The position numbers and the translations under genes are program-made. Positions 1 to 39,834 of a stretch of DNA of 47,642 nucleotides are shown one piece after another. The notes under the pieces were generated by a model that made no database searches, was not told where the DNA came from, and was given only the letters and a program-made list of their open reading frames with translations. The first letter of the stretch is position 1. The number at the start of each line of letters is the position of its first letter. Source of the stretch: Nitrospirae bacterium MYbin3 (GTDB taxonomy: Bacteria; Nitrospirota; Thermodesulfovibrionia; Thermodesulfovibrionales; Dissulfurispiraceae). The stretch is taken from assembly GCA_002753335.1 (NCBI GenBank), contig PEAD01000024.1, positions 1 to 47,642 of the forward strand. Direction: 5' to 3'.

Positions 1-2
1 CA

Positions 3-197
3 AAGGGGCATCTGGGAGGGGCGATGGGAAAAGAGGTCTGGATTATGCTGCCGTATGTGCCTGACTGGAGATGGCTGATAGATAGAGATGACAGTCCTTG
101 GTACCCTTCTATGCGTCTATTCAGACAAACAGAGCCTTCCGACTGGAATGCGGTCATCGATAAAATTTTTTATAGCCTTTCAAACAGGACAATATGA
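3..197 (+). CDS. 3' end of a TPR/GT-B (GT9-like, FlmG-like) glycosyltransferase, truncated by the window start
   Basis: Frame 3 reads HLGGAMGKEVWIMLPYVPDWRWLIDRDDSPWYPSMRLFRQ, the same C-terminal motif as 194..1759 and 8826..10472. Its TGA (195-197) overlaps the next ATG (ATGA). Confidence 0.85.
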   Translation, partial: KGHLGGAMGKEVWIMLPYVPDWRWLIDRDDSPWYPSMRLFRQTEPSDWNAVIDKIFYSLSNRTI

Positions 198-1759
198 CAA
201 CAAAAAAAGAACTGATTGAAGCAGTACTGAAGCAGCGCGAAAACGGGATGCTCAAAGAATCTTCGGCCTTATGCACTGCTGCAGTTAAAAACTTTCCTGA
301 TGATGCTGATATACTTCACCTTTGCGGGGTCATTGAATCCGAAAACAGGGATTACCAAAACGCAATAATCAGCATCAAAAAAGCGCTTATCATAAATCCA
401 AACATGCCTTCTGCATACAACAATCTCGGCGTGGCGCTCTCGGAAAGCGGCCAGCTTGATGATGCGATAGAAGCCTACAGCAAAGCGGTCTCACTTATGG
501 GCGAGTATGCCCCTGCTTACGACAACCTCGGGCTTGCGCTAAAACGAAACGGCAAACTAAGTCAAGCTATAGAATGCTTTAAAAAAGCTATCTCAATAGA
601 TCCTTCATACGCAAAAGCATGGTATCACTTAGGCAATTCGCTGTATGAAATAGGAGATATGGACAGCGCCGAAAAACATTTAGTCAGAGCAACAGAGCTC
701 GCACCTCTTTTTGCTGACGCATACGGCAATCTGGGGTCTGTTTATAACGAAAAAAAAGAGCTATCGAAAGCCATAAAGTGCTACCGTGAAGCTATACGCA
801 TAAAGCCTGATCATGCAAACGCCCATTGGAACCTATCGTTGGCGCTACTGCTTTCGGGAGAGTTCGAAGAGGGCTGGAAGGAATATGAATGGCGCTTTGC
901 GCTAAAGGATTCTGAAAAAAGAATTTTCTCTAAACCCAAATGGGACTGTTCTTCGCAAATCACCGGCAAATCATTGCTAATACATACGGAGCAGGGATTT
1001 GGAGATGCTATTCAGTTCATAAGATTTGCGCCTATGATTAAAAAAATGGACGCAAAAATAATTTTAGAGTGTCAGAAAGAGTTGACACGACTGTTCTCCA
1101 AAGTAGAAGGCGTCGATACTGTCATCCCGGAAGGGGAGAAGCTGCCTGAGTTTGATCTGCACTACCCTTTGCTCAGCCTTCCTTTGGCTCTCGGCATAAC
1201 ATCAACAAACATCCCTAACCTTCCGTATATCTCACCGGATGAAAACGAGGCTAATAAATGGGGCGAATTGCTTGGCACATTAAAAACTTTAAAAATTGGG
1301 CTTGTTTGGGCAGGAAAACCCAATCATTTTAGAGACAGGTTACGATCTGTTCCTGCATCTGTCTTTGCGCCTTTATTGGAAGTTGCCGGCGCAAGATTTT
1401 ACAGCCTTCAAAAACAAAACCACGAATATGCCAAGACCGAAGAAATAGAAAGTTGGGGAATCATTGATTTTACCGATAAGTTTTACGACTTTGCGGATAC
1501 TGCTGCTTTTATATCAAAACTTGATCTTGTGGTAACCGTTGACAGTGCTATAGCGCATCTTGCCGGAGCAATGGGGAAGCTTGTCTGGGTAATGATACCC
1601 TTTGTCCCCGATTGGCGTTGGCTTAAAAAAGAAACAAACAGTCGGTGGTATCCCACCATGAAACTCTTCAGACAGGAAGAGCCGGGCAAGTGGGAGCCGG
1701 TAGTGATGTCGCTAAGAGAAAATCTGGTTGAAATGACAAAAAACATAAATGCTATATAG
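194..1759 (+). CDS. TPR repeat + GT-B (GT9-like) glycosyltransferase, FlmG/FlbA-like
   Basis: N-terminal TPRs (AYNNLG..., AYDNLG..., AYGNLG...). Then GWKEYEWR, EQGFGD, IGLVWAG, DLVVTVDSAIAHLAGAMG and DWRW...WYPTMKLFRQ. Confidence 0.85.
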   Translation: MTTKKELIEAVLKQRENGMLKESSALCTAAVKNFPDDADILHLCGVIESENRDYQNAIISIKKALIINPNMPSAYNNLGVALSESGQLDDAIEAYSKAVSLMGEYAPAYDNLGLALKRNGKLSQAIECFKKAISIDPSYAKAWYHLGNSLYEIGDMDSAEKHLVRATELAPLFADAYGNLGSVYNEKKELSKAIKCYREAIRIKPDHANAHWNLSLALLLSGEFEEGWKEYEWRFALKDSEKRIFSKPKWDCSSQITGKSLLIHTEQGFGDAIQFIRFAPMIKKMDAKIILECQKELTRLFSKVEGVDTVIPEGEKLPEFDLHYPLLSLPLALGITSTNIPNLPYISPDENEANKWGELLGTLKTLKIGLVWAGKPNHFRDRLRSVPASVFAPLLEVAGARFYSLQKQNHEYAKTEEIESWGIIDFTDKFYDFADTAAFISKLDLVVTVDSAIAHLAGAMGKLVWVMIPFVPDWRWLKKETNSRWYPTMKLFRQEEPGKWEPVVMSLRENLVEMTKNINAI

Positions 1760-1768
1760 GTGGGCTGT

Positions 1769-2632
1769 ATGATCGTTCAAATGTCATGGCTAGGCAAGGA
1801 TGAACTGCACGGATTTGGAAATCAATTCTTTGCATTTTTTTTCTTGAAATTCATTGAGTCACAAATTGGCTGTGATATTCGTTATTCAACTTGGTTGGGC
1901 AATATTCTCTTTAATCTTCCTGAATGCAACCCTGTTCTGTCATATGATGAAAGCATAGATTTAGAACATACCATCAGTCGCGAAAAAGGACCTGAGGCAG
2001 AAATTAAAATTATTAAAAGCCATCTAGAAAAAGAAGCTAAAGTTTTAGAGCTAATGGGATTATTTCAATACCATACTTCAGCCTACATAAAGCATAGAGA
2101 GATGTTCTTCAATATCTTCAACTTTAGTGAACTTATTGAGCAACAGATAAACCAATCCTTGGTTAATTTAGGATTGGAAGATTGCCCTATAATCTGTGTT
2201 CATTTCAGAAGGGGTGATTATCTGAAATTTGCAAACAAGCATCCGTTATTCTGGGGCGGCAGTTTTGATGCCGTAATCAACGCCTTGTCTGACCTTATGC
2301 TGTCTTCATTTAAAAATTCCGCCATTTATTTATGCAGCGACGATATAGAGCATTGCAGACGAGAGTTTGAGTTGCGAAACATTCCGTGCATCACCAATGC
2401 AAGCCTCTTTGCGGTATTGGATGATTCGACCCGGTTGATTTCTGACTTTATGATGATGGCAAAATCAAGCGCACTCATTATCGCAAATAGTTCTCTTTCT
2501 TTTGCTGCAGCAATGTTAAATCATAAAGCAAAGATTTTTTTGCGCCCTTGTCCGCAAAAAGATAGATTTATTCCCTTTGACCCATGGAATTCTCATGTTC
2601 TTCTTCCAAAGTTCCCGCTTCATTTTCCATAG
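1769..2632 (+). CDS. GT11-family (alpha-1,2-fucosyltransferase-like) glycosyltransferase
   Basis: GFGNQFF, VHFRRGDY, CSDD and IANSSLS match GT11 signature motifs. ATG 1769 preferred; GTG 1760 is the alternative. Confidence 0.75.
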   Translation: MIVQMSWLGKDELHGFGNQFFAFFFLKFIESQIGCDIRYSTWLGNILFNLPECNPVLSYDESIDLEHTISREKGPEAEIKIIKSHLEKEAKVLELMGLFQYHTSAYIKHREMFFNIFNFSELIEQQINQSLVNLGLEDCPIICVHFRRGDYLKFANKHPLFWGGSFDAVINALSDLMLSSFKNSAIYLCSDDIEHCRREFELRNIPCITNASLFAVLDDSTRLISDFMMMAKSSALIIANSSLSFAAAMLNHKAKIFLRPCPQKDRFIPFDPWNSHVLLPKFPLHFP

Positions 2633-2658: not shown

Positions 2659-3318
2659 ATGCTTATAGATTTTTCTAAATGCAACAGGTTAATCGGCGCG
2701 CTTTATAGCAAACCGGTCAAAAAGATCTATCATGTTGGCGCACATATAGGAGAAGAAGCATTTATATATGCTGCCAATAAAGTTGAAAAAGTGGTCTGGT
2801 TTGAAGCCAACGATTCTTTATTGCAGTCTTTGAGCGAAAATATCAGCAAATACGATATTGAGCAGTTTATAGTGCCTTACGCGTTATTTGATGAAAACAA
2901 GGTGCTGAAACTAAATGTAACGAATAACTTTCAAAGCTCTTCTGTGTTTGAACTGGACAGGCACTCTGCATATTATCCTCAAATTATCGTCAGCGAAATA
3001 AAGGAAGTTCAAGCCTATCGACTGGATTCGTTGATTGAAGCCAAACAATGTCATTTGCCATGGATTGATTTTGACTTTATTAACATTGATACGCAGGGTT
3101 CTGAGCTTGCAGTGTTGAAAGGACTGGGCAATTACATCAGCCAACAATCATTAAAAGGCATATTCCTTGAAGTAAATTCGGAGTCTCTTTATAAGGGAAT
3201 TCCTTTGGTTTCTGAGATTGATGAATTCTTGGCAAGACATAGCTTTTTTCGAGTTCTGACAAACTGGACAAAAGAAGGCTGGGGTGATGCGTTCTACTTG
3301 AAATCTGTTACGCTTTAA
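2659..3318 (+). CDS. FkbM-family SAM-dependent methyltransferase
   Basis: HVGAHIGEE, WFEAN, NIDTQGSELAVLKG, LEVN..LYKG and WGDAFY motifs. AGGAGA RBS upstream. Confidence 0.85.
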   Translation: MLIDFSKCNRLIGALYSKPVKKIYHVGAHIGEEAFIYAANKVEKVVWFEANDSLLQSLSENISKYDIEQFIVPYALFDENKVLKLNVTNNFQSSSVFELDRHSAYYPQIIVSEIKEVQAYRLDSLIEAKQCHLPWIDFDFINIDTQGSELAVLKGLGNYISQQSLKGIFLEVNSESLYKGIPLVSEIDEFLARHSFFRVLTNWTKEGWGDAFYLKSVTL

Positions 3319-3349: not shown

Positions 3350-3379
3350 TTGCTGGAAATTGCTGCCTTGCGATACAAT
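3350..3379 (+). promoter_or_regulatory. possible sigma-70 promoter
   Basis: TTGCTG-N18-TACAAT in the gap before the methyltransferase gene. Confidence 0.3.
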
Positions 3380-3398
3380 TAATATATTCTACTTTAGG

Positions 3399-4139
3399 AT
3401 GACCATGGGCACAAACTATTATTCACCGTTAAAAGAAAGTCACGATGTAAAGTATGGTGACTCACCTCGCATAGAAATAGCCAATCTTATAACCTGGATT
3501 CCTGAAAATATTCTCGAGATAGGTTGTGGCACAGGCGCCACCGGCCAATTGCTGAAACAGAAGTTTCCTAATCTGTTTTATAAAGGCATCGAACTGGATA
3601 AAACTGCTGCTGAGCTTGCTTCTAAGCGCCTTGACAATGTTGTTGTTGCTGATATTAACCGATTTGATGCCATAGAGTTAGGAATTGAAAAAGAATCTTT
3701 TGACCTGATTATCTGCGCTGATGTTTTGGAGCATCTGTATGACCCTTGGAAAACTTTACATGATTTGAGAGATTGTCTCAGGCCTGATGGAAAGTTGATT
3801 GCAAGCATCCCCAATGTCCAGAATATTGACCTTATTCTGCAGCTTGTTAATGGAAATTGGAGTTATGCAAAACATGGTTTGTTGGATGCGACACATATAA
3901 GGTTTTTTACTTTGAACGAAATATACAAGCTCTTCAATGGCACCCGGTATAATGTAATCCATTGCTTTAGCAATAGACAGCCTGGATTAGAAGAGCAGGG
4001 ATGGCCTAAAGATCTTGATTTGGGAAAGATAGTATTAAAAAATATCTCGCTTGAAGAAGCTGCCAGCTTTTTTACTTTTCAATATTTTGTTGTAGCTGAA
4101 AAAAACAGAACGCCTGCCGAAAACACCTCGACAAAATGA
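3399..4139 (+). CDS. class I SAM-dependent methyltransferase (sugar-cluster type)
   Basis: ILEIGCGTG, FDLIICADVLEHLYDP, SIPNV and GLLDATHIRFFT. Start ATG 3399 or 3405 rather than TTG 3360. Confidence 0.85.
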   Translation: MTMGTNYYSPLKESHDVKYGDSPRIEIANLITWIPENILEIGCGTGATGQLLKQKFPNLFYKGIELDKTAAELASKRLDNVVVADINRFDAIELGIEKESFDLIICADVLEHLYDPWKTLHDLRDCLRPDGKLIASIPNVQNIDLILQLVNGNWSYAKHGLLDATHIRFFTLNEIYKLFNGTRYNVIHCFSNRQPGLEEQGWPKDLDLGKIVLKNISLEEAASFFTFQYFVVAEKNRTPAENTSTK

Positions 4140-4168: not shown

Positions 4169-5737
4169 GTGGGGAAAGTAAAATTAAAAATCATGCTGTC
4201 TTGCGTATTAAACCCTCTTGTTCCCGCCTATTACATAGAAAAAGCACTAAGAAAAAAACATGACGTTATAAAGTTCTCTCCTTTAGATATTTCTGAAAAG
4301 AGACTTAAGTACGAATGGAATATAAACTACAACGACATAAAAGACAAACTGCTGCCTCCGGAAATAGGCTCAAGCGTATTTTCGCATGCGGAAGCCGTAA
4401 AAAAGCTGCCTTGGAATCCTGATGTATTGTTTTACATAGACACCCATATTTGGTACCCTTTCGTTGGAATAGAGAAAATCGATGCATTCAAAGTTTGCTG
4501 GCTTATTGATGCTCATACATCACAGGAACTTTATTTAGAAATAGCGAAGAAGTTCGATATCGTGTTCCTGACAGAGACCTGCTATGTTGAGGCCTTCAGA
4601 AAACAGGGCATAAAAAATGTCTTCTGGATGCCATTGGCTTGTGATGATATCAACATCGGAAAACCTAAAGAAAAAACATTTGATATTTCTTTTATAGGTT
4701 CAATAAAAGATGACAGAAAAAAATACATGGATTTACTAAACCACAATTTTAATTTTGCGACCAAGAGTGCATTTTATGAAACCGCAACGGCCCTTTATGA
4801 ACAGTCACGACTAGTTTTACATATATCTCCACACATAGATTCAGGATATAAAATTCTGAGTGCCCGCATCTTCGAAGCTATGGCATCAGGATCTGCGTTA
4901 ATCACCGACAGAATAGGCAGTACTGATATAAATACTCTTTTAAAAGAAGGCCGCGATTATATAGGTTACACAGATTCAAATGATTTAGTAGAAATTGCAA
5001 AATACTACCTTAATAACGAAAACGAAAGGGAAGAAATAGCAAAAAATGGATTTAATAAAGTGACTGCTTTACATACTTACGACAAGAGGATTGACGCTAT
5101 TACAGACATAATTACCGGGTTCCTGGGGTCAAGAGAAAATCACAATGACATGAATAGCAATGTTACACAACCGCTAACTCTCCAGCAACTCATAGACAGG
5201 GAAGATTTCAATGCCGCTATTTCGATCTGTCTTGAATCAATAAAATCGGATCCTGATAATTATATCGCTTACAATACTTTGGGAGATGTATATTCAAAAA
5301 TGCATGAATATGAAAAAGCGATAAGATCTTACAAAAAATCTTTATCTATTAAAGATGATGCCGGCACTTACAACAACATCGCAAATATTTATTTTGTATG
5401 CAATAACTTCGACAGCGCAACGAAATATTACAATATTGCCCTATCCTGCGATAAAAACAACTACGCCATATATCAAAATTTGGGAATACTTTCTCATCTC
5501 AAAGAAGAATATGAAAACGCAATGATGTTCTATAATGAATCGCTTAAACTCAATCCGAAAAATGGGCAGATATATAACAATATATTCAATATTTTTGTAA
5601 AATTCTATACTAAAGGCACACTCATTAGTGATAGCAATTCTCCTGAAATAACAAATAGATTGTATTATCTTCTTTCTCCCGAATTCAGGTTTGAAGATAT
5701 AAAGATTTATTTAAAAAAATCTTTCGAATATTTATAA
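4169..5737 (+). CDS. CgeB-like glycosyltransferase with C-terminal TPR repeats
   Basis: WMPLACD, DISFIGS, RIFEAMASG, EREEIAKNG and HTYDKRI (CgeB/Glyco_trans_1_2-like). Then TPRs AYNTLG, TYNNIA, IYQNLG. Confidence 0.75.
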   Translation: MGKVKLKIMLSCVLNPLVPAYYIEKALRKKHDVIKFSPLDISEKRLKYEWNINYNDIKDKLLPPEIGSSVFSHAEAVKKLPWNPDVLFYIDTHIWYPFVGIEKIDAFKVCWLIDAHTSQELYLEIAKKFDIVFLTETCYVEAFRKQGIKNVFWMPLACDDINIGKPKEKTFDISFIGSIKDDRKKYMDLLNHNFNFATKSAFYETATALYEQSRLVLHISPHIDSGYKILSARIFEAMASGSALITDRIGSTDINTLLKEGRDYIGYTDSNDLVEIAKYYLNNENEREEIAKNGFNKVTALHTYDKRIDAITDIITGFLGSRENHNDMNSNVTQPLTLQQLIDREDFNAAISICLESIKSDPDNYIAYNTLGDVYSKMHEYEKAIRSYKKSLSIKDDAGTYNNIANIYFVCNNFDSATKYYNIALSCDKNNYAIYQNLGILSHLKEEYENAMMFYNESLKLNPKNGQIYNNIFNIFVKFYTKGTLISDSNSPEITNRLYYLLSPEFRFEDIKIYLKKSFEYL

Positions 5738-5752
5738 AAAAGCGGTTACCAA

Positions 5753-6847
5753 TTAATCAATACTGTTTTTTTCTATCACCCTTAGGCTCATAAACGAAAA
5801 AACTTCATTATATAATCTTGATGAGCTCATGAGTGTGTTATAAAACGAAGAAACCCCGTCCCATACGCCAATATCATGAAAAACAATCAATCCTCCGGTT
5901 GCAACAAATGGGGACCACAATGAAAAATCCCTTTCAGACCCTTCTAATGAATGGTCGCCGTCAATAAACAAAAGCCTTATTGGCCCTGACCAATTCTTAA
6001 CCGCCTGCTCAGAACTTGCAACAGTCGGTATTACATAATCATCCAGCCCTGCAGCACTAAGATTTTCAGAAAAACGTTTAAAAGTGGTTCCTTCACTTAT
6101 CAGTTCTTTTTCGTTCTTATGTTCTAAAGATCCGCTAAAATGATCAATTGCTGTAATCTTCTCTCTGCCAGAATTTTTCGAGCCTTCGGCAAGCCAACAT
6201 GTTGACCGCCCCATAAAACTTCCTATTTCAACAACCGATCCTGCTTGGGGGCCTTTAGAAGCAAGTGCCATAAGAATATACCCCTCCACACTATGAAGAA
6301 ACCCCTGAATATTGCAAAATCTATCTCTAAAAAAATCATAGCGCTCCTCAAATTCATCAAATAATCGTGCTAGAGGATAGCGTTCCTTAGAAATACCAAA
6401 TGCTCTCATAAAAGACTCTTTCGCACCGGATAAATCACCTGTTTCCTCAAGAACCTTACCCAGATTTGTAAAAATCTCAGCTGATGCATTATTGCAAGAA
6501 ACAGCCTTGCGATAGGCACTAATAGCAAAATCAATCATGCTAAGGCGATAAAATACATTCCCTTGGTTATTATATAAATCGGCATTGTCAGGTGCTATGT
6601 TGATAGCTTTTGCAATACAAACAAGAGCTGCTTCATGGTTGTTCTTTTTCGAATAAAGTGCAGAGAGATTGTTTAAAGCGGCTGTGTGATTAGGATTTGT
6701 CTCAAGCAACTTCTCATAACAAAGTATAGCTTTTTCGGTATTCCCATTTTTTTGAAAAAACATTGCTAAATTGAAATAAGCATCGGTATTTAGAGGGTTC
6801 TTGTTGACTTCTTGTATTAGATGTTTCATTTCGTCAGATTTTTTCAA
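5753..6847 (-). CDS. N-terminal TPR + class I SAM methyltransferase (Methyltransf_24-like) fusion
   Basis: TPRs, then VVEIGSFMGRST, AIDHF, LLFIDGDHS and GGLIVFHD. Start TTG 6847 or ATG 6829. Confidence 0.8.
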   Translation of the reverse strand: MKKSDEMKHLIQEVNKNPLNTDAYFNLAMFFQKNGNTEKAILCYEKLLETNPNHTAALNNLSALYSKKNNHEAALVCIAKAINIAPDNADLYNNQGNVFYRLSMIDFAISAYRKAVSCNNASAEIFTNLGKVLEETGDLSGAKESFMRAFGISKERYPLARLFDEFEERYDFFRDRFCNIQGFLHSVEGYILMALASKGPQAGSVVEIGSFMGRSTCWLAEGSKNSGREKITAIDHFSGSLEHKNEKELISEGTTFKRFSENLSAAGLDDYVIPTVASSEQAVKNWSGPIRLLFIDGDHSLEGSERDFSLWSPFVATGGLIVFHDIGVWDGVSSFYNTLMSSSRLYNEVFSFMSLRVIEKNSID

Positions 6848-7134: not shown

Positions 7135-7998
7135 ATGAACGAGATAGCATTAACATCCTCGATGAGACAAAACCTCATCAATCTGCAGGGAACAGCAAAC
7201 AACTTATCAACGGTTCAAAACAGACTGGCATCAGGCAAAAAGGTTAACACCGCTCTTGATGATCCGGTGAACTTCTTTGCTGCTCAGGCAAATATGTCAA
7301 GGGCTGCTGACCTTGCGCTCCGCAAAGATTCTATGGGCGAAGCGATTCAGACAGCAAAAGCTGCTGATTCAGCAATAACCGCGATTTCATCGCTCCTTGA
7401 TCAGGCAAAGTCTATCGCCACCACTTCGCTCTCAACTTCAGACACGAATAGCCGAGCAAGTTATTCGACGCAGTTTAACGTAGTCATGAGTCAGATTTTG
7501 GCGGTAGCCAATGATGCCAGCTATAAAGGCACAAACTTCCTTAAAGCCGCCACATTGACCGTAAAGTTCAATGAAGATGGCACTTCTTCTCTTGCTATGA
7601 CAGGCTTTAGAGGCGACTCAATAGCCAACCTTACTCTTGGTATGGTTGGTACAACTGTAACAACCTCTTATGGCAGTTCTACAGGTGTGGGTATCTGGTC
7701 AGATGCTACCTGCGGTGGATCAAATATTCAAGGCGCACTCGACGCAATCAACACCGCAACCACAAACCTCAGAGACCAGGCAAAGTCTATCGCAACTAAC
7801 CTTAACGTTATTACAGTGCGTTCAGAATTCGCAAAGAACATGATCGACACTCTAAAAACCGGTGCAGATAATTTGACACTGGCTGACATGAATGAAGAGG
7901 GCGCTAACATGCTTATGCTTCAGACCCGTCAGTCTCTGGGCATCACTTCACTGAGCCTTGCTTCACAGGCAGCCCAGTCCGTATTAAGAATGTTCTAA
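7135..7998 (+). CDS. fliC: flagellin (alphaproteobacterial-type termini, 287 aa)
   Basis: N-terminal RLASGKKVNTALDDPVNFF and C-terminal LTLADMNEEGANMLMLQTRQSLG...QSVLRMF. Ser/Thr-rich centre, followed by flbT and flaF. Confidence 0.95.
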   Translation: MNEIALTSSMRQNLINLQGTANNLSTVQNRLASGKKVNTALDDPVNFFAAQANMSRAADLALRKDSMGEAIQTAKAADSAITAISSLLDQAKSIATTSLSTSDTNSRASYSTQFNVVMSQILAVANDASYKGTNFLKAATLTVKFNEDGTSSLAMTGFRGDSIANLTLGMVGTTVTTSYGSSTGVGIWSDATCGGSNIQGALDAINTATTNLRDQAKSIATNLNVITVRSEFAKNMIDTLKTGADNLTLADMNEEGANMLMLQTRQSLGITSLSLASQAAQSVLRMF

Positions 7999-8497: not shown

Positions 8498-8810
8498 ACT
8501 AGAGGCTTCTGTTCTAGAAAAAGCAGCAGCAATACTCAAAAACTGCAAAGAAAATTGGAATGAGCAAGGATTGGAAGCTAAGCTTAATGATGCTTTAGGG
8601 TTCAACAACCTCATATGGAGCATTTTAAAAAGTGAAGTTTCTAAGGGCACCACACCCCTTCCTGTTGAAACAAGGCAAAATCTGTTAAAGCTTGCAGATT
8701 TTATAGAAAAACGCACAGAAGATATTAGGAAGAATCCATCAGCAGATAAAGTAGATATCTTAATTAATATTAATTTAAACATAGCGTCGGGATTGAAAGG
8801 AGCCGTTTAA
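8448..8810 (+). CDS. flaF: flagellar biosynthesis regulator FlaF
   Basis: GRELEASVL, ALGFNNLIWS, LPVETRQNL and LININLNIASGL. GAGGAG RBS; overlaps the flbT 3' end by 50 nt. Confidence 0.9.
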   Translation: MESKDPLSENNNMSGRELEASVLEKAAAILKNCKENWNEQGLEAKLNDALGFNNLIWSILKSEVSKGTTPLPVETRQNLLKLADFIEKRTEDIRKNPSADKVDILININLNIASGLKGAV

Positions 8811-26973: not shown

Positions 26974-26978
26974 TCTCG

Positions 26979-31233: not shown

Positions 31234-32294
31234 CCCAGAATGCAGTCCCAGGTGATTGGGTCTTCAAATTTGATATTCTTTTTTGCGGTAATCTTATATT
31301 TATCAAAGAACTTAATAAATTTTGGCTCTAATCCATGTTCTTTCTTGCCGGACCTAAGAATATTTATATCGTTTGCACTGATAAGATCTCCCGGACAGAT
31401 ATCCCGCCCCGAATACAACCTCATAAAGGCAAAGTCTCTCAAATGTTTTTCGTGCGAATAAATTTTCTTTTCACTGCTGCCATAAATAACCTCATCTATA
31501 CAAAAATCTTTTTTCTCGCAATCCCCTTCAGCTTTGCGTATGTCCGCAACCATTTTTGCCAATTCATGGGGTTCTAAAGCAAAAAAATGGTCAGGACCGG
31601 TCATATCCTTGTTAAGAGTAATGTGCTTCTCGATTATTCGTGCGCCTAAGTATACAGCCTGGACAGCAGCCTCTGAAACTTCTTTTGTGTGATCAGAATA
31701 TCCTATATCGATGCAGGGGAAAGCCTTCCTGTAAGTTTCTATAACTCCAAGATTGCAGTCTTTCAATTGTGTAGGATATTGAATAGAACAGTGAAGCAAA
31801 GCTAATTTGTTGTGATATTTTAATACTGTTTCTACCGCTTCAAATACCTCGCCAAGTGTTGCGCCTCCGGTCGACAGAATAATTGACAAGCCCCTCTTAG
31901 CACAATACTCAATAAGGGGGATATTCGTAGCGACATATGATGCGAGTTTTGCAGTTTTGAATCCATGTGCGCTTAAAAAATCACAGCCTTCCTTATCAAA
32001 AACCGATGCAAGAAAATCTATCTTTTTTTCGGCGCAATATACCATAAGTTTATCTATCCAGCCCTCAGGCATTTCTGATTTTTCAACCGAAGAATAAATA
32101 TCATAAGAGTAGGCCTTATGCTCATCCAGCCAATCCAGCATCCCTGCACTTTTAGGATAAAGATTTTTAGCCCTAAACAGCTGAAACTTTACGGCATCAC
32201 ATCCGGCAGCGGCGGCGGTATTAATCATCTTATAACAGTTCTCTATATCCCCGTTATGGTTGATGCCAATTTCGGCAATAATGTAGGTTTTCAT
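31230..32294 (-). CDS. neuB: NeuB/PseI/SpsE-family nonulosonic acid synthase
   Basis: IIAEIGINHNG, AVKFQ, LSTG, LLHC..YPT, GYSDHT and IEKHITL...GPDH; C-terminal SAF-like domain. Confidence 0.92.
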   Translation of the reverse strand: MKTYIIAEIGINHNGDIENCYKMINTAAAAGCDAVKFQLFRAKNLYPKSAGMLDWLDEHKAYSYDIYSSVEKSEMPEGWIDKLMVYCAEKKIDFLASVFDKEGCDFLSAHGFKTAKLASYVATNIPLIEYCAKRGLSIILSTGGATLGEVFEAVETVLKYHNKLALLHCSIQYPTQLKDCNLGVIETYRKAFPCIDIGYSDHTKEVSEAAVQAVYLGARIIEKHITLNKDMTGPDHFFALEPHELAKMVADIRKAEGDCEKKDFCIDEVIYGSSEKKIYSHEKHLRDFAFMRLYSGRDICPGDLISANDINILRSGKKEHGLEPKFIKFFDKYKITAKKNIKFEDPITWDCILG

Positions 32295-32920
32295 TATTCT
32301 CTGTACTTAATAACTTTTGCCGGCACACCAACACAAATTGCATACTCCGGAACATCCTTTGTCACGACCGCATTTGCCCCAACTACCGCGCCCTTCTTTA
32401 TAACCACACCCATTTTAATTGTAACATTACCACTTATCCATACATCATCCTCTATTACAATAGGAGCATGACTATAACCCTGGTCTCTGATAAATTTTGA
32501 CTTCACTATGTTGTGCTCGCTGGAGTTCAAGTTTATATTGCCTGCAAACAAACACTTCTGCCCTATAATGACAGAGGTGCCACAATTAAAAGTGCAGTAA
32601 GGTCCTATAGCAGTCCCTTTGCCTATTATCAATTCTGCATCATTAGCTGCCACAAACCTGCAGTCAGAATCAATTGCAACATCATCATTTATAACTATTT
32701 TCCCATGTTCGCGGTTTCTGATATCTATATCCCCGCCTATAAACACATTGTTGCCGATGCAGATATCAGAAGCCCTGCCTCTTATCTTCAAATGCGGTGT
32801 CCCTTTTATTCTAAATTTTTCACCAACTTTAACACCCTTTCGCAATAAAATGACCTTAACAAGCATGCTGTGAAGAGACCAGTATGATTCTCCGAAAATC
32901 AATGACAGAATCTTATACAT
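32294..32920 (-). CDS. hexapeptide-repeat (LbH) acyltransferase
   Basis: IEDDVWISGNVTIKMGVVIKKGAVVGANAVVTKDVP...GVPAKVIKYR. ATG 32920 overlaps the upstream TGA. Confidence 0.85.
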   Translation of the reverse strand: MYKILSLIFGESYWSLHSMLVKVILLRKGVKVGEKFRIKGTPHLKIRGRASDICIGNNVFIGGDIDIRNREHGKIVINDDVAIDSDCRFVAANDAELIIGKGTAIGPYCTFNCGTSVIIGQKCLFAGNINLNSSEHNIVKSKFIRDQGYSHAPIVIEDDVWISGNVTIKMGVVIKKGAVVGANAVVTKDVPEYAICVGVPAKVIKYRE

Positions 32921-33966
32921 CAGCCCTTCTCCAAAATATAACGATGCTCGCCCTCTCCCCACATAATTGAGGCATCTTTTATGTTCTCCGACAACGCATA
33001 ATCCAGATCAAAAATATTGGCAGATATTATCTTCGTGAATTTAAATCCAAGCTCTTTGAATGTATCCTCCAGTTCCTGGCGGCTAGTGTGTGTTTCTATA
33101 GGCACATACCACGTATCTAAAAAAACAAACCTATTGTAAGGAAGCCCCATAATTTTTAACATATCTTTAGTAAATTCATACGGAATACTCTTAAATATTT
33201 CGCGCATTTTAATTCGTGTTTCCCAAAATATTCCTCCAGTTGCATAAAGATATAAAAAGCCTCGTCCTCCATAGCGCAGAACCCTGTAATATTCCCTAAG
33301 ACCTTGCTTTATTGATGTTGAATGATGCAGTGTTCCATTACAGAACACAAAATCAAAACTGCCATCTTCAAACGGAAGATTATGAAAGCTGCCTTCAAAA
33401 AAAATAATTGGCAGCTGCCTAGAATCGGCTAATCTCTGCGCCAACCTATATGACTGTTCATACAGATCAATAGCATATACCTTTTCAGCGTTTGCTAAAG
33501 CCAGAGCGATTGAGTATCTACCGCTACCACATCCCATATCCAAAACAACCTTCCCTTTAACAGCGTCCTCTATAATCGTTGGGGGAATCCGATTGGATAA
33601 CAGTTCGAAACTTTCCTTAACAAAAGTATCTTCAGAAAATCTATTCCAAAGGTCAGTATATAAATTTGATGTTGCCCGCTCTATAGATTCTTTTTCCATG
33701 GGGTTCTTGGACATATCGATGCGATTGACAGAATAAAACTTAATAAAGTTAAGCGAAGATTCCAGCCAAGAGTTCAGAGAACTAATCTTTCTGGTAATAA
33801 ATTCAACAGGATCGCAATTAACAAATCTCTCAAAAGGCTCATATGGATAAAGAAACCTGTAAAGTTCATGACAGGCTATTACAGTCAGGTGAGCTCCACC
33901 GTTAATAATTAGTTCGGAGCATTTTTGCGAAAACAACTCTAGCTCTTCAAAATATTTCTCAGCCAT
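32920..33966 (-). CDS. class I SAM-dependent methyltransferase with N-terminal extension
   Basis: VLDMGCGSGR, LPFEDGSFDFVFCNGTLHH and RVLRYGG. Confidence 0.85.
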   Translation of the reverse strand: MAEKYFEELELFSQKCSELIINGGAHLTVIACHELYRFLYPYEPFERFVNCDPVEFITRKISSLNSWLESSLNFIKFYSVNRIDMSKNPMEKESIERATSNLYTDLWNRFSEDTFVKESFELLSNRIPPTIIEDAVKGKVVLDMGCGSGRYSIALALANAEKVYAIDLYEQSYRLAQRLADSRQLPIIFFEGSFHNLPFEDGSFDFVFCNGTLHHSTSIKQGLREYYRVLRYGGRGFLYLYATGGIFWETRIKMREIFKSIPYEFTKDMLKIMGLPYNRFVFLDTWYVPIETHTSRQELEDTFKELGFKFTKIISANIFDLDYALSENIKDASIMWGEGEHRYILEKG

Positions 33967-35623
33967 TCTTTACCCTAAACATCTTCTTCCAGTATTCAAA
34001 TGCCATCGACTTATAAACGCTTCTATTGTATTTTCCTGTTCTGTCCCATTCAAACCATCTGTTTACAGGCGCAGAGAAACCTCTTTTGTCTATGCGGTCA
34101 ACTATTTCTCTGGGAATAAATTTTCTTGCGACTTTTTTCAATGCCCATTTTGTAACTCCATTTCGTATTTTATATTTTGAAGGCATCGAAAAGGCATACT
34201 GTATAAGCCTGTAATCCAGGAACGGCGAACGGTTCTCGATACTGAAAGCCATGCAAAGCCTGTCGGCCATCTGTAAAAGCACCTGCATAGTAGAATAAAA
34301 ATCGTTCAATCCCATTGCATGGATGACATCAGCCCTTGTCTTTTCAAAATAATAAGATATCGTCTGGTCCAAATATCTGTTAACCTGCTCATCAAACTGA
34401 TTCTCGCAGCGGTTTACAAGCTTGGCATATCTGTCTACAGGACTACCATAGTATCTGCCTACGAGATAAGCATATTTGCTCATGGATTCGAGCTGTTTGA
34501 TTTGTTCATCATGGTATAAAAGCATATATCTAGAATATCCTGAAAAGATTTCATCCGCTCCGTCACCATTCATGACAACTTTTAGGTCCCTGCACGAATG
34601 CTCAAGCAGCATCCATAAAGAGAAACTTGTCCATGTGCAGGGGGTGTCAAGATGATATGCTATCTGATCTCGGGTCCGAATAAAATCTTTTTTGTCAGGT
34701 TTTATAACCTTCAATTCCCTTTTGATTCTTTTTGCTATCAACTGCGCATACTCAAGCTCATCGAAATCGTCATAATCGTAATGAACGTGGTATATAAAAT
34801 CAGGTTTCGAAATACAGGCCACCAATGAACTGTCAACGCCACCGCTGATAAAACATCCGTATTGGTGGACAGAATTCTTTGTCCTAAGCAAAATAGCATC
34901 TTCAAGCAGTTCGGACAAATCCTTGATAATCTTCTTTTCATTATCCTGAATATCAATTAGATTGTCCCAAATCTTCCAATATTCGTGCTTTGTAAATCCT
35001 TTATCATTAGCCTTAATGTACTCCCCCGGTTCAAGGCTGTAAATATTCTTAAAAAGAGTCTCTGAGCCGACCGTAAATTCATATGCCCTGTAAGATATGG
35101 CATTGCGGTTAAACTCAGGGCTGACCACTTCTAAAAGACTCTTCATTTCGCTGGCAAATGCAAAAAAATCTTTCCCCTTTACGTAATATATTGGCTTTTC
35201 GCCGGCCTTGTCTCTCACTATATATACATTCTTCCCCTGTGCATCACATACTGCAAAAGCGTACATGCCGTTATAATCTTTGAAAGAATCCGTTCCTTTT
35301 TCAATATAATTATAAAGGGCAGTTTCGGCATCTGAATCAGTTTTGAATTTATAAGAGAAAATTAGGCTGTCTTTTATCGAATTATGGTTGTAAATTTCCC
35401 CGTTGTAAACAATTACATAGCTACCAGAAGAATCCTCATAAGGAATCGTGTGTTTTGACTTCCCGATAATACTAAGCCTCGTGCTTCCTAAAGTTACATT
35501 GCCAAAAGTTTTAAGCCCAATCTGATCAGGCCCTCTGTATCTCATTTTACAAAGCATATTATTGACAATCTCATATGCGTTGTACTTTTTGTTTTTAGAA
35601 ATAAATCCGGCAATGCCACACAT
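33959..35623 (-). CDS. asnB: asparagine synthase-like glutamine amidotransferase (probable sugar amidation)
   Basis: MCGIAG, RGPD, YNGEIYN, SGGVDSS, GDGADEIF and ENRSPFLD. Confidence 0.9.
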   Translation of the reverse strand: MCGIAGFISKNKKYNAYEIVNNMLCKMRYRGPDQIGLKTFGNVTLGSTRLSIIGKSKHTIPYEDSSGSYVIVYNGEIYNHNSIKDSLIFSYKFKTDSDAETALYNYIEKGTDSFKDYNGMYAFAVCDAQGKNVYIVRDKAGEKPIYYVKGKDFFAFASEMKSLLEVVSPEFNRNAISYRAYEFTVGSETLFKNIYSLEPGEYIKANDKGFTKHEYWKIWDNLIDIQDNEKKIIKDLSELLEDAILLRTKNSVHQYGCFISGGVDSSLVACISKPDFIYHVHYDYDDFDELEYAQLIAKRIKRELKVIKPDKKDFIRTRDQIAYHLDTPCTWTSFSLWMLLEHSCRDLKVVMNGDGADEIFSGYSRYMLLYHDEQIKQLESMSKYAYLVGRYYGSPVDRYAKLVNRCENQFDEQVNRYLDQTISYYFEKTRADVIHAMGLNDFYSTMQVLLQMADRLCMAFSIENRSPFLDYRLIQYAFSMPSKYKIRNGVTKWALKKVARKFIPREIVDRIDKRGFSAPVNRWFEWDRTGKYNRSVYKSMAFEYWKKMFRVKNG

Positions 35624-35626
35624 AGC

Positions 35627-36940
35627 TTAGCCTAATTGCTGAAGTTTCCCATCTCCGGGAACATGATAAGTGGCCTTGGAAGAGAAGCGAAAAGCCTTCA
35701 ATAATCCTGTATTATCTATAATAATTTTTCTGTTATTTATACAAAGCCGCTCAATATCCTTTTGAGTAAAATACCTGTATTCTTTATGCGATGCCATAAT
35801 AAACACCGCATCTGTGATCAACTTCCCATTTTTTATATCGATAAAATTGGCAAATGGAAGAATTTCTTTAATCTCTTTTTCTGTAAAAAAAGGATCGTTG
35901 ACAAACACCGTTATCCCATTCTCATTGAAATACTCAGCAAGAATAAGTGATGGTGAGAGTCTTATATCTTTTAGGTCTCCTTTTACCGACAAACCCAGAA
36001 TAGTGACTGACCTTGCCCCGCGACGCTTCACTGCATCGGCGTAGTTAAGCAAGCTTGATAGATTAACTGCCTGAGATTCTTTTATGATAGACAGCATCCC
36101 AGGGTTGTTTGCGCCCATGAGAAGATGGTTAATCGAGTTTAATGTCCGATAACTGCTAGTCCCTACACTAATCGCAGCTTCGTTCAACCCGAACAGGCTG
36201 GACAGGAGTTTTACCATCTTTGTAATGTCTGTTTCAGGGTAGGCCAGCGAGAGCTGATTAAGGATTGCCGAAAAAACATATTCTATAGAATTTTTGGTAT
36301 TTTCATAAATTTCGGCCTCTTTCAATGTCGCAAGGGAACTGTTCTTTATGCCCAAGGCATCATAGAAGACCTGCACCTTATCCAAAGACTCTTGCGAATA
36401 TCCGGACAATACCACAGCCTTTTCATTCGAAAAGAACTCCTCAAATGTCCAATCGCTGCGAAATGCCGAAGCATAAAAACATTTTATTTTTGCATTTTCT
36501 ATCCTGCCTATAAACTCTCCTTCGATGCCTCCAGGAACTCCGGCTGCCTGAAAAATCACCAATGAGTTTGCCGCCCTCTTGCCGTTCTTTATAAAAGTAT
36601 CGGCAATAGCGCTTAGTACATCTTCACCACCGTCAGTCTTAATATAGGGAAGGGCAATTATATGCACCGCTGATGGAAATAAATCATCAGGACTCGATTT
36701 GATGGATAACCTTGAAATATCAACAGCCGGAACTTCATCTTTTACTGACCAAAGATTTCTCTGTTTGCCTGTAGGATATGCTCCTTTTTTAATATCCGCC
36801 GCTGTCACATTATCCCAGCTGTAAACATTAACAAAAAAACCTTGCGACTGAAGCAGTAATATCGTAGAATACCCCAGATACCCTATACCCCAAACCGAAA
36901 CCGTCTTGCTTGCCAATAAGACTTCCTTGAATTTTTGCAT
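35627..36940 (-). CDS. degenerate UDP-glucose/GDP-mannose dehydrogenase-family protein
   Basis: WGIGYLG Rossmann motif and C-terminal ILGLSVKGDLKDIRLSP...DPF...HKEY. The GGxC, PER and catalytic Lys motifs are not recognisable. Confidence 0.7.
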   Translation of the reverse strand: MQKFKEVLLASKTVSVWGIGYLGYSTILLLQSQGFFVNVYSWDNVTAADIKKGAYPTGKQRNLWSVKDEVPAVDISRLSIKSSPDDLFPSAVHIIALPYIKTDGGEDVLSAIADTFIKNGKRAANSLVIFQAAGVPGGIEGEFIGRIENAKIKCFYASAFRSDWTFEEFFSNEKAVVLSGYSQESLDKVQVFYDALGIKNSSLATLKEAEIYENTKNSIEYVFSAILNQLSLAYPETDITKMVKLLSSLFGLNEAAISVGTSSYRTLNSINHLLMGANNPGMLSIIKESQAVNLSSLLNYADAVKRRGARSVTILGLSVKGDLKDIRLSPSLILAEYFNENGITVFVNDPFFTEKEIKEILPFANFIDIKNGKLITDAVFIMASHKEYRYFTQKDIERLCINNRKIIIDNTGLLKAFRFSSKATYHVPGDGKLQQLG

Positions 36941-36941
36941 A

Positions 36942-38090
36942 TTATTTCCTCACTAAATCGTTAAAATGTTCAACTACATATTCGATGTCCTCATCCGTCA
37001 TAGAAGGGAACATCGGTATAGACAGCATCTCCGGAAATACCTTGTTGGCTACAGGGAAATTATCTTCTGGAAAGCGTCCCCGATAATAACTGTGCATGTG
37101 GAGCGGCCTAAAATGAACACTGGCTCCTATATTGCGCTGTTTAAGCTTATCAATCAAGCTGTCTCGTTCAATAATGCTCGAAGGGACTCTTACAATAAAT
37201 AAATGATAGATATGGTTATGAATTTCAGAGTCTGCGGTAAATAGGACATTGCTGCTCAGATTATTTCTGTATACTTTTGCAATATGCTTCCGTCTATTAT
37301 TCATAACATCAATTTTATGCAGCTGAGCCAAACCTATCGCAGCATGAATGCTGTCAAAGTTATATTTATAGCCTAATTCCTCTATATCGTAAAACCATTT
37401 GCCGGTTTTGCCATAGCGATTGAAGGCTTCCTTATATATGCCAAAATAGCTCAATTTTCGTATCTTCCCTATCAGCTCCTCGTCTGAAGATACAACCATG
37501 CCGCCTTCTCCGGTAGCAAGGTTTTTGGTGGCATAAAAACTAAATACCGTAGCATCCGAAAAATTGCCGATCTTTGTGCCTCTATATTGAGTTCCAATAG
37601 CATGTGCAGCATCCTCTACGATTTTTATGCCGCGATCTGCTCCTATTTTTTTCAGCCCATCCATATCACACGGATAGCCGGCCATATGAACAGGGATGAT
37701 CGCTTTTGTCCTCGAATTGATAAGCCGCTCCGCTTTTTGGATGTCTATGTTCAGACTGTCCTCTTCTATGTCACACAAAACAAGCGTTGCGCCTGTCCAT
37801 TCCACAATCTGGGCTGTAGCCGCAAAAGTCCATGTCGGAACTATCACCTCGTCGCCTTTGCCTATGCCAAGCGCAAGCAGCGCAAGGTGAAGCCCTGCGG
37901 TGCATGAATTCAAGGCAACAGAATGAATTTCATTGCCATCATGCCTTAAATAATCGGCCACCATACGCTCAAACCTGTCAACAACCGGCCCTGTCGTCCA
38001 CCAGCCGGACCGCAACACCTCTGCAACAGCCGCTATCCCGTCTTCATCGACAGAGGGTCTGGACAAAGGCAGAAAATTATCCCTAATCAT
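36942..38090 (-). CDS. DegT/DnrJ/EryC1/StrS aminotransferase (SpsC/PseC-like)
   Basis: SGWWTTGP, NSCTAGL, TFAATA, VEDAAHA, FSFYATKNLATGEGG (PLP Lys) and GYKYN. ATG 38090 is coupled to the upstream stop. Confidence 0.92.
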   Translation of the reverse strand: MIRDNFLPLSRPSVDEDGIAAVAEVLRSGWWTTGPVVDRFERMVADYLRHDGNEIHSVALNSCTAGLHLALLALGIGKGDEVIVPTWTFAATAQIVEWTGATLVLCDIEEDSLNIDIQKAERLINSRTKAIIPVHMAGYPCDMDGLKKIGADRGIKIVEDAAHAIGTQYRGTKIGNFSDATVFSFYATKNLATGEGGMVVSSDEELIGKIRKLSYFGIYKEAFNRYGKTGKWFYDIEELGYKYNFDSIHAAIGLAQLHKIDVMNNRRKHIAKVYRNNLSSNVLFTADSEIHNHIYHLFIVRVPSSIIERDSLIDKLKQRNIGASVHFRPLHMHSYYRGRFPEDNFPVANKVFPEMLSIPMFPSMTDEDIEYVVEHFNDLVRK

Positions 38091-38947
38091 CTCTCCAAAA
38101 CCTCTCCTGTCCCCTGATTGCCGATTTCGGGATACCATGAATCGCACGACCTGCAGACAGCATCTGTAAATTCAAGCCGTTCGTGTTGACCTCTTAAACC
38201 GCGGTAATTTTCACTGTGCCATATGCCGTATAGTGTTTGATTATTCACGTTTCCCATAGGATCCCCGTTCCAGTCGTGGTTGCATCTTCCAACACCGCCA
38301 TCATCATAAACAAGCATTTCATAAAACGGCATGACGCACAACTTTCTTTCGGCCCTTGGAGTGTCTAACGATCCAAACCTTCCGTCTTTTGAATGTTCAT
38401 CATACACCCTTACTCTGTCAACCTTAGACTGCCACAGTCTTTTAAATGTCTCTATGTCTTCGTCGGTAGTATAATCGCTCCTCACCATAGATGTCTGGGT
38501 CTTTACCCTGCCCTGATTGAAGTCTAAAAACTTAAGTATATTTTTCTCGACCATTCCGTATTTTGCCGGAACCCTGGTCTTTTCGTAAACTGAAGGCACA
38601 TCGAGGCTGAACGAAAGGAATGTTATCGAATCGACTATCGAAGCAAATTTATCTTCCACCAGCAACGTGGCGTTGGTAGCCATCTGGATCTCGCCGAATT
38701 TGCCGGCAACATATCTTAAGAGCTCTTTAAACCTAGGGTGCATCATGCTTTCACCGCGCCTGTGAAGAACTATTATGGTCTCAGGATAAAGCGAGGCCTC
38801 ATCAATTATTTTCACAAAAAGATCCCAATTTATATATCCTGACAATTCCTGCATATGATGACGAGGGCAGTAAACACATTTCAAATTGCAGTTGCTTGAA
38901 AGCTCTATTTCCAGTCTCTTCGGAAATTCAGGTGTAGAGTGCGCCAT
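38087..38947 (-). CDS. radical SAM protein with twitch/SPASM domain
   Basis: IELSSNCNLKCVYCPR, ATNATLL; C-terminal CVMPF...GRCNHD...MGNV...CRSC. Confidence 0.9.
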   Translation of the reverse strand: MAHSTPEFPKRLEIELSSNCNLKCVYCPRHHMQELSGYINWDLFVKIIDEASLYPETIIVLHRRGESMMHPRFKELLRYVAGKFGEIQMATNATLLVEDKFASIVDSITFLSFSLDVPSVYEKTRVPAKYGMVEKNILKFLDFNQGRVKTQTSMVRSDYTTDEDIETFKRLWQSKVDRVRVYDEHSKDGRFGSLDTPRAERKLCVMPFYEMLVYDDGGVGRCNHDWNGDPMGNVNNQTLYGIWHSENYRGLRGQHERLEFTDAVCRSCDSWYPEIGNQGTGEVLER

Positions 38948-38950
38948 TAC

Positions 38951-39685
38951 TTATCGATCCTCTAAAACCAGGTGATCCGATTTCTTCTGATCAAGCATCG
39001 ACCTATTCATCAGAACTATTTCAAAGATATCCTGGGAATCGAAATTGGTCGAATCTTTCAAAGAAGCCGCAATACTCCGGCAAAAACCGAGATCCTCCGG
39101 GTAATCAACCGTAAGCTTCATATCTTCAAATCCCTTCAGATTCATGCCTGCATCAATCGTTTTTGTTCTGAATCTCTCAGGATTATTTCTGATATAGCGA
39201 GTTACATGCTCAAGGTCTTCATCATCTGAGGAAGCCCGCAAACTTTCCTTTAGTGCATTCAGCGACACTATCTCTGCATCTGTGCCGACAAGAAATGTCA
39301 GTGGGGTGCAAAACACATAATCGACCTGACTGTCTTTAAACTCTCTAAACATAGCATCAATTCTACCAACATCAACAAACGGAGAGTCGGCACAAACTCT
39401 GCATATTGTATCGGAACCATAAAATTCGGCAGCTTTTACATATCTATAAAGCACGTTGCGCAAATCACCCCTGTAGACCTCAATTCTGTGAGCCATGCAA
39501 TAATCAAACAACTCATCGTCGCTTTTGTCGTTAGATGTTACAACCGCCGTTATGTCAGCTTCGGACGAAGCTGAACATCTGTTATAGATAAACTCTACAA
39601 TAGGCGTATCAAAAATATTGGATAACACTTTCCCTGGAAAGCGGCTTGAAGATAGCCTTGCCTGTATCAATATAGACTTTTTCAA
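38951..39685 (-). CDS. spsF: SpsF-like cytidylyltransferase (CMP-nonulosonate synthetase)
   Basis: IQARLSSSRFPGKVL, RVCADSPF, EHVT and LTVDYPED. Start TTG 39685 inferred; the ORF extends to ATG 39727. Confidence 0.85.
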   Translation of the reverse strand: MKKSILIQARLSSSRFPGKVLSNIFDTPIVEFIYNRCSASSEADITAVVTSNDKSDDELFDYCMAHRIEVYRGDLRNVLYRYVKAAEFYGSDTICRVCADSPFVDVGRIDAMFREFKDSQVDYVFCTPLTFLVGTDAEIVSLNALKESLRASSDDEDLEHVTRYIRNNPERFRTKTIDAGMNLKGFEDMKLTVDYPEDLGFCRSIAASLKDSTNFDSQDIFEIVLMNRSMLDQKKSDHLVLEDR

Positions 39686-39834
39686 TTTTATAGAAAAGCA
39701 CCTTAGCAAACAGGACAGACATCGCAACTTTTATTTAAGCAGGTTTTTTCAGGCAAATCAGCCTTATTTCCCTGCTTTTTATTATCGTGATATTATTATA
39801 AACGTTTATGCTATAGTTACGAAACGGAGGCGAT

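Follow-up and report, generated by a model that had tools for sequence, protein, structure and literature searches.

A large island of TPR-fused glycosyltransferases around a flagellin gene of a Nitrospirota bacterium

Which acceptor is served by a set of glycosyltransferases (GTs) that carry tetratricopeptide repeats (TPRs) and surround a single flagellin gene, and what do these enzymes build? The question is raised by contig PEAD01000024.1 of Nitrospirae bacterium MYbin3 (assembly GCA_002753335.1; 2.93 Mb, 93.7% complete), the whole of which (47,642 nucleotides) is the window analyzed here. The window probably represents most of a very large island that would build a multi-sugar, likely nonulosonate-capped glycan on flagellin before its export, and we are fairly confident that flagellin is the main acceptor. 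The locus belongs to a known kind, the flagellin glycosylation islands (FGIs): it adjoins a flagellin gene, combines GTs with enzymes of sugar synthesis and tailoring, varies between relatives and has an atypical GC content (0.39 vs 0.444 for the genome). What it adds to this kind are GT9-fold enzymes, a TPR module termed T12 and a cross-phylum cassette. Below, G000 denotes this genome, C-numbers its contigs (the window being C7), G001 and further G-numbers its relatives, L-numbers loci and T-numbers the TPR-bearing open reading frames (ORFs) of the island.

The flagellin gene and the enzymes around it

Domains were assigned with Pfam and with NCBIfam/TIGR families, and membrane segments with a hydropathy scan. 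The flagellin (7135-7998, plus strand), identified by family scan and searches of the assembly, is a 287-residue protein of the alphaproteobacterial type; its gene, inside the island, is the sole flagellin gene found in the assembly. The best matches in the Protein Data Bank (PDB) are Caulobacter flagellins (E = 2e-15), and the closest flagellins include those of metagenome-assembled genomes of Thermodesulfovibrionales/Nitrospirota. Its 66 Ser/Thr residues (23%) are typical for its clade and not strong evidence of glycosylation. It is followed on the same strand by genes for an FlbT-like flagellin regulator (8072-8497; NF009432, E = 5e-37, below the curated cut-off) and the flagellin regulator/chaperone FlaF (8448-8810; NF009435, above cut-off). 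Four sigma-54 motifs were found, with 5.8 expected and none upstream of fla, while sigma-70 matches occurred at chance level only.

The earlier note had placed nine complete TPR-bearing ORFs and a partial paralogue around this flagellin, and Pfam detected TPRs in all nine. Its further statement that the TPRs are fused to enzyme domains held for GT9-like, GT41, GT4, GT2, CgeB-like and methyltransferase domains and failed in two places: T12 consists of TPRs only, and the partial paralogue is a GT9-like end, the TPRs of which sit on another contig. Pfam itself recognized GT41 twice (E = 7e-123), GT4, GT2, CgeB-like PF13524, Methyltransf_24 and GT11.

Three enzymes, T1, T10 and T11, have N-terminal TPRs and a C-terminal GT-B domain, as indicated by a fold model for T10 and by Pfam for T1 and T11, and their GT domains resemble GT9 and SPINDLY. 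T1 (194-1759, plus strand, 521 residues; 79% identical to its G001 orthologue) and T10 (8826-10472, plus strand) carry a GT9-like domain for which the Pfam evidence was weak, just above cut-off (PF01075, E = 6e-5 and 8e-6), and neither this domain nor its profile matched any chain among the PDB sequences. The predicted fold of T10 (pLDDT 95.6) comprises seven TPR-type helix pairs and a GT9 fold; a fold search with this model retrieved a Veillonella GT9 (Z 19.8, rmsd 2.8, 249 aligned residues), WaaF (Z 18.7), WaaC (17.8) and TibC (16.2), and the GT9 assignment of T10 was thus confirmed at the level of the model. All 66 sequences compared retain D303, D482 and H487, which presumably correspond to the catalytic motifs of GT9. 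T10 is a candidate initiating transferase, whereas T11 (10455-14279, minus strand) is a SPINDLY-like candidate protein O-glycosyltransferase composed of two TPR-GT41 units in tandem, both with TPRs, PF13844 above cut-off and the same SPY-like motifs; its first GT41 domain matched Arabidopsis SPY (E = 8e-100) ahead of human OGT (1e-52). Caulobacter FlmG, the known system cited in the earlier note, is not the right nearest model for most of the enzymes, the GT41 domains being SPINDLY-like.

The largest protein, T15 (18484-23367, minus strand, 1627 residues), combines a LIC12162/Capsule_synth-like, a TIGR04326-like and a GT2 domain with TPRs, as assigned by clusters, Pfam and TIGR. Residues 1-590 map to LIC12162/Capsule_synth/Glyphos-type clusters (0.97-0.98), though in most rows these families are found on under half of the cluster members, and residues 917-1154 match TIGR04326 below cut-off. 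Stand-alone homologues of the T15 domains have 582-610 residues, the second domain occurred in no further long protein among 6982 candidates, and comparison of the domains with PDB sequences yielded nothing useful. We infer that the N-terminal domains are nonulosonate transferases grafted onto a GT2-TPR protein, T15 being a candidate nonulosonate capping enzyme.

C-terminal TPRs are also found in T14 (16369-18306, minus strand; GT4), T5 (4169-5737, plus strand; CgeB-like GT with PF13524 and DUF3880) and T13 (14917-16329, minus strand), the last with a possibly GT-A-like domain that has no Pfam match and, as its sole lead, a GT2-like atlas cluster (0.93). T6 (5753-6847, minus strand) has N-terminal TPRs and a Methyltransf_24 domain. 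TPRs are absent from the GT11-family enzyme (1760-2632, plus strand; PF01531, E = 3e-13; no match in the G001 island loci), from three of the five methyltransferases (starts at 2659, 3360, 5753, 26979 and 32920) and from a GT4 on contig C13. Two of these methyltransferases lie on the plus strand beside GT11: an FkbM-family enzyme (2659-3318; TIGR01444, above cut-off) and a SAM methyltransferase (3360-4139), the G001 homologue of which (62%) is situated in a satellite locus. In total, GT-type domains number about ten in the window, where they represent at least five families, and C13 adds three. Among the 45 GT2/GT4/CgeB-type ORFs of the genome (46 rows minus one overlapping fragment), TPRs were present in 3/3 inside the window vs 1/42 outside, on C9; TPR fusion of the window GTs thus exceeds chance. 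The TPR profile used was conservative and overlooked TPRs in a G001 GT2 that Pfam detected. As a separate observation, the end of C53 (G000:C53:11204-11290) shows an integrase-type insertion sequence followed by 87 bases identical to window positions 5729-5815, which suggests either that the element has inserted at the T5 end in some members of the population or that the assembly branches there.

From 39727 to 10455, 22 minus-strand genes with gaps of -73 to 177 bp run from a sugar block to the GT41 gene. The block (23377-39727) measures 16.35 kb, in line with the ~16-kb nonulosonate block that the earlier note had reported along with GT11 and five methyltransferases. As assigned with Pfam and NCBIfam, its minus-strand genes encode a radical SAM/SPASM enzyme (23377-24432); WbuX-like amidotransferase, WbuZ/HisF2-like and HisH-like proteins, which point to acetamidino-type tailoring (24423-26973); a methyltransferase, a formyltransferase, a PIG-L deacetylase and a GNAT acetyltransferase (26979-30266); a PseG-like hydrolase and a NeuB-family synthase below the NeuB and PseI cut-offs (30241-32294); a hexapeptide acetyltransferase, a methyltransferase and an AsnB-like amidotransferase (32294-35623); and an NDP-sugar dehydrogenase-like protein, a PseC-like aminotransferase, a second radical SAM/SPASM enzyme and a cytidylyltransferase (35627-39727). 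Candidates for all steps of a pseudaminic/legionaminic acid (Pse/Leg) pathway but the dehydratase are therefore present, with PseC, PseG, PseI and NeuB scores below curated cut-offs. Since no dehydratase was found in the block and PseB/LegB-like genes are located on C21 and C50, the first step would come from another locus, although the NDP-sugar dehydrogenase-like protein (35627-36940), very divergent (best PDB match E = 9e-6) and with no more than two Cys, may take the place of this step or act before it.

None of the 33 island proteins matched Wzx, Wzy, ABC exporter or priming transferase families, and only one possible transmembrane segment was found across them, in agreement with the earlier note, which had seen no such genes.

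Recurrence of the system beside flagellins in other genomes

Among 407 flagellin relatives, the best 80 gave 76 loci, in Nitrospirota, Desulfobacterota, Ignavibacteria/Bacteroidota and one Thiobacillus; isolates of Desulfosarcina and Geomonas/Citrifermentans are represented among these loci. At least one TPR-GT was encoded within 10 kb of the flagellin in 37/76 loci and in 28/38 of those of at least 15 kb; 17 loci had at least two, seven at least three, and 19 contained a TPR-GT of at least 1,200 residues. TPRs were present in 66/97 of the GT-bearing ORFs, a priming-transferase homologue in 3/76 loci and a Wzx homologue in 0/76. By comparison, TPR-GTs occurred in 4/119 20-kb windows of G000, all on island or satellite contigs; this background describes the genome itself and is not a cross-genome null. 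TPR-GT megaenzymes of 2,200-2,900 residues stand beside flagellin in L068, L070, L072, L077, L083, L086, L088, L129 and L163. Extended stretches revealed islands of at least 40 kb in G106 and G044. The unusual size claimed for the island consequently holds insofar as it extends beyond the window, but the idea that it is unique to this genome was rejected, as comparable islands exist elsewhere.

In G001, the genes for flagellin, FlbT, FlaF, T1, T10, T11 and T12 are kept at 71-87% identity, whereas 14 cassette genes have no match there and a different NeuB cassette, again with TPR-fused enzymes, occupies the same position. The island is thus a conserved core with an exchangeable sugar cassette. 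The fla-flbT-flaF type of flagellin locus is patchy (5/41 genomes of the own order and 7/121 Desulfobacterota, many kin having canonical FliC), and this distribution suggests horizontal spread of the Caulobacter-type fla-flbT-flaF set. The GT9-like domain was found in 5/41 genomes of the order, namely three with this flagellin type, G019 and G035, and in 7/121 Desulfobacterota: G111, G146 and five carriers of this flagellin type, two of which had contributed to the training alignment. In G019 the TPR-GT9-like gene lies 7 kb from a canonical FliC gene, beside a Maf-TPR gene and WbuXYZ, and in G111 directly upstream of canonical FliC. GT9-fold TPR enzymes therefore adjoin flagellins of two lineages, which is a new point. 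Homologues of WbuXYZ, AsnB, PIG-L, NeuB and PseG also recur beside the canonical flagellins of relatives. Clusters of TPR-GT9-like and TPR-GT41 genes form loci L131-L133 of G035.

T12 (14370-14873, minus strand) is a stand-alone TPR protein of 167 residues with a KNLAD[FY]Y motif. It scores 206 bits on its own profile, the next TPR protein in the genome reaching 63, and is 87% identical to its G001 counterpart, compared with 80% for the flagellin. Close homologues, free or within GT megaenzymes, occur in 16/76 flagellin loci. In the order, T12 was found in 4/41 genomes, all among the five with this flagellin type (3/4 in the alignment). In 121 Desulfobacterota (31 candidates scored per genome), seven carry the module and seven the flagellin type, five of them both, each time on one contig, the seed genome being one of these five; G068 and G110 have the flagellin type and no T12 match. 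All seven modules lie in a flagellar region: six share a contig with the flagellin gene, at a distance of up to about 41 kb, one of them 8 kb from canonical FliC (G093), and the seventh stands beside motAB (G046). Of the best 150 library matches to T12, 97 contain true modules (26 nearly pure repeats and 71 longer proteins); 53/71 longer ones match GT2/GT4/CgeB/methyltransferase/radical SAM references, five more, of 13 tested, have a Pfam GT2 domain, and none matches GT9 or GT41. GT2-TPR and GT41 genes come after T12 in two metagenome loci as well as in G001 and G023; G000 lacks that GT2. A metagenome scan returned three T12 loci only, none reaching a flagellin, and the profile did not match the N-terminus of a Maf-TPR protein. 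T12 is thus a candidate adaptor from a distinct flagellum-linked TPR subfamily.

Acceptor and route of assembly

The sole flagellin gene lies inside the island and TPR-GTs recur beside flagellins; for these reasons flagellin is the likely target. In the proposed mechanism, T11, T10, T1 and the paralogues on C13 would recognize flagellin via their long N-terminal TPR arrays and put the first sugars on Ser/Thr, and T14, T5, T13, the GT11 enzyme and the GT2 domain of T15 would extend them. The two N-terminal T15 domains would then add CMP-nonulosonate, made and tailored with formyl, acetamidino, amide and methyl groups by the enzymes of 23377-39727. T12 would serve as an adaptor, and the extending enzymes would more likely be held together in a complex by their short C-terminal TPRs than each be docked on flagellin by them. 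The glycan would be built in the cytoplasm by soluble enzymes before flagellin is exported.

The earlier note had proposed a flagellin-directed assembly line, of which we retain a cytoplasmic, lipid-carrier-independent system aimed at flagellin and doubt the docking of each TPR on it. In its strict form, with every TPR binding flagellin, enzymes docking in turn and all building and methylation occurring there, we consider the proposal unlikely. It would account for nine TPR ORFs around one flagellin, for the TPR fusion of domains that are free-standing elsewhere (the 582-610-residue T15 homologues) and for the fusion of T12-type modules to GT2, GT4, CgeB or methyltransferase domains in at least 53/71 longer matches. 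The TPR regions of the island, however, are mostly 22-40% alike and fall into different groups; GT11, the three methyltransferases and the C13 GT4 mentioned above lack TPRs; and TPRs serve dimerization and stability in Cps3D (PMC11666461) and an intramolecular contact in GmaR (PMC9638930). The methyltransferases of the nonulosonate block would also act more simply on the nucleotide sugar.

Equally to be weighed is a mixed island, in which one or two enzymes, T11 and/or the GT9-like set, attach short glycans to flagellin at separate sites while the nonulosonate block and T13-T15 serve lipopolysaccharide, S-layer or pilin via exporters encoded elsewhere; we regard this as improbable. Wzx, ABC, priming and ligase genes do exist on C50, C21, C34 and C3, the T15 domains and the radical SAM genes have similar counterparts in the C50 locus, the lack of a dehydratase implies that precursors are already shared, and a cyanobacterial TPR-GT41 modifies pilin (bioRxiv 2021.07.06.449578). 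Yet these lipid-linked loci carry their own Wzx, ABC, priming, ligase and NeuB genes (the polysaccharide loci of C50, C21 and C34 contain five further NeuB paralogues and numerous radical SAM/SPASM genes) and no TPR-GTs. Furthermore, the block is tightly co-oriented with T15-T11, and the different NeuB cassette of G001 again comes with TPR-fused enzymes.

An O-antigen or capsule locus whose exporters would lie immediately left of the window was rejected. At bases 5-166 the window overlaps with contig ends of C13 and C6, both of which also overlap with C9; the assembly breaks inside two paralogous GT9-like genes, whose last 700 bases are 93-100% identical and whose TPR parts diverge. Because of this repeat overlap and of the synteny with G001, where TPR-GT9, GT4, TPR-GT9, T1 and fla follow in order on one contig, C13 most likely joins C7 on the left, and G000:C13:14-1378 is most likely the 5' part of the truncated TPR-GT9-like gene at 3-194 (plus strand), the window holding its 3' end (63 residues), as called from contig-end overlap and G001 synteny. 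The third gene of the G001 contig has a C13-type N-terminus (72%) and precedes T1. The C13 flank adds a pair of TPR-GT9-like genes and a GT4, followed by a second flaF and a flagellar operon, whose gene names we presume from the sequence; it contains no priming transferase gene and no wzx, wzy or wzm-wzt, the genes whose presence there, with the sugar in lipopolysaccharide or capsule, would according to the earlier note have pointed away from flagellin. The second flaF (G000:C13:4241-4633, 46% identical) has no flagellin beside it and heads the C13 TPR-GT9 genes; a solitary flaF also precedes a TPR-GT9-like gene in G023. The members of an equivalent GT9-like pair in G001 are 98% alike across the 357 available bases, and likeness between the two species is about 74%. 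As the GT9-like domains of island and satellite are near-identical within each species and their TPRs divergent, their sequences suggest concerted evolution.

Several findings weigh against flagellin as the acceptor of the whole system. The satellite TPR-GT locus of G000 on C9/C6 (TPR-GT9, CgeB-TPR, GT2-radical SAM and epimerases) has no flagellin nearby, and the best in-genome homologues of the second T15 domain and of the radical SAM genes lie in the O-antigen-type locus on C50, as does a Maf-like domain (G000:C50:23939-24175; Leg/O-antigen-type locus). G032 has the same fla-flbT-flaF and no adjacent TPR-GT or T12. No TPR-GT was found in 39/76 flagellin loci, many of which are short, and the surveyed loci and genomes include close kin, so that the counts overstate independence. 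In G035, a 99%-complete genome, neither flagellin nor FliG was found alongside three TPR-GT9-like and several TPR-GT41 genes; in G146 a GT9-type domain occurs and FliG_C was not found; and the GT9-like family is huge (7980/7999 scored candidates at E<=1e-30, including a cyanobacterium). From G035, G146, G032 and the size of the family it follows that a TPR-GT alone does not imply flagellin. A further reading, in which the TPR-GT9/GT41 enzymes act in the cytoplasm as general protein glycosyltransferases, serve many acceptors and are linked to flagellin only through a hot spot for incoming DNA, would suit these genomes, the C9/C6 locus, the low GC and the IS3 junction. It is very improbable given that such genes directly adjoin fla/flbT/flaF time and again, across four phyla and two flagellin lineages, and that modules homologous to the satellite locus are present inside the flagellin islands of other genomes.

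Known systems and what the island adds

FGIs of Enterobacteriaceae (PMC4875605) and Clostridium (PMC13317340) resemble the present island: a variable, low-GC block by the flagellin contains GT41/GT2 enzymes, some with TPRs, FkbM/SAM methyltransferases, formyl-, acetyl- and aminotransferases and often incomplete sugar pathways. Enterobacterial FGIs, which include SPINDLY-type GT41 along with FkbM, formyl and acetyl transferases, encode one to three GTs, all from the same family, and clostridial ones TPR-GT2, compared with the GT repertoire of the window and C13 given above; neither GT9-fold enzymes nor a stand-alone TPR module were noticed in the consulted passages on these FGIs.

FlmG of Caulobacter crescentus and Brevundimonas subvibrioides, in which the TPR binds flagellin (PMC7591256) and the GT-B domain sets the donor (bioRxiv 2022.03.25.485807), is alike in the layout of T1, T10 and T11, the flagellin type, FlbT/FlaF and a nearby nonulosonate pathway. 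It differs in being a single enzyme for a single Pse/Leg sugar; the island enzymes with N-terminal TPRs have a GT9 fold or are SPINDLY-like, and the domains resembling nonulosonate transferases belong to T15, whose TPRs are C-terminal. FlmG is reported to be confined to Caulobacterales; in Shewanella oneidensis, the C-terminal TPR of Maf-1 is an acceptor module whose binding of flagellin was shown, and GlfM, a small helical adaptor of Maf-2, is a precedent for the role proposed for T12 (bioRxiv 2023.12.03.569772). A Maf system was rejected: PF01973 (MAF_flag10/DUF115) gave a single match in the genome, on C50, and none in the window, and T12 consists of TPRs and is associated with GT2/GT4/GT41 enzymes. 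TPR and GT41 are also combined in SPINDLY/OGT and cyanobacterial Ogt, T11 differing by two full units per chain. TibC is a protein O-heptosyltransferase; together with the GT9 heptosyltransferases WaaF and WaaC it shares the fold of T10 at 11-16% identity, T10 being TPR-fused. The TagF-like capsule polymerases Cps3D/Cps7D are likewise multi-GT proteins with a TPR domain, structural in Cps3D, but build capsule on a glycolipid (PMC11666461), whereas neither the island nor the C13 flank yielded a capsule exporter. GmaR is a GT-TPR protein (PMC9638930) and flmQ a predicted flagellin GT (PMC4462625). Searches for literature on GT9/GT41/TPR islands, Geobacter and Desulfobacterota FlbT/FlaF, and on Caulobacter-type FlbT/FlaF control and glycosylation in Nitrospirota/Desulfobacterota, found no paper, most subscription papers being outside their coverage.

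Known cytoplasmic flagellin systems attach one sugar by one enzyme (FlmG, Maf, GmaR) or use one to three transferases; the island suggests a much longer, lipid-independent protein glycan. Caulobacter-type flagellin control and glycosylation would extend to Nitrospirota and Desulfobacterota, the large uncharacterized TPR-GT9-like family gains flagellin as a candidate acceptor, and T12 becomes a candidate portable tag for recruiting enzymes to flagellin, useful in glyco-engineering. As a tentative and more far-reaching proposal, fla-flbT-flaF would be a mobile cassette of Nitrospirota, Desulfobacterota and Ignavibacteria, GT9-fold TPR enzymes a new class of flagellin-priming O-glycosyltransferases, and T12-type proteins docking modules, free or in megaenzymes of 1,200-3,600 residues, that recruit GT2/GT4/methyltransferase domains to a lipid-carrier-free plug-in assembly line.

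The right flank (39835-47642) holds a metallophosphoesterase gene (Pfam) among ordinary-looking genes that we take to be hslUV, xerC and genes for an RlpA-like protein and a sigma-54 regulator. The last 106 bases of the window are a repeat common to C59, C34 and C49.

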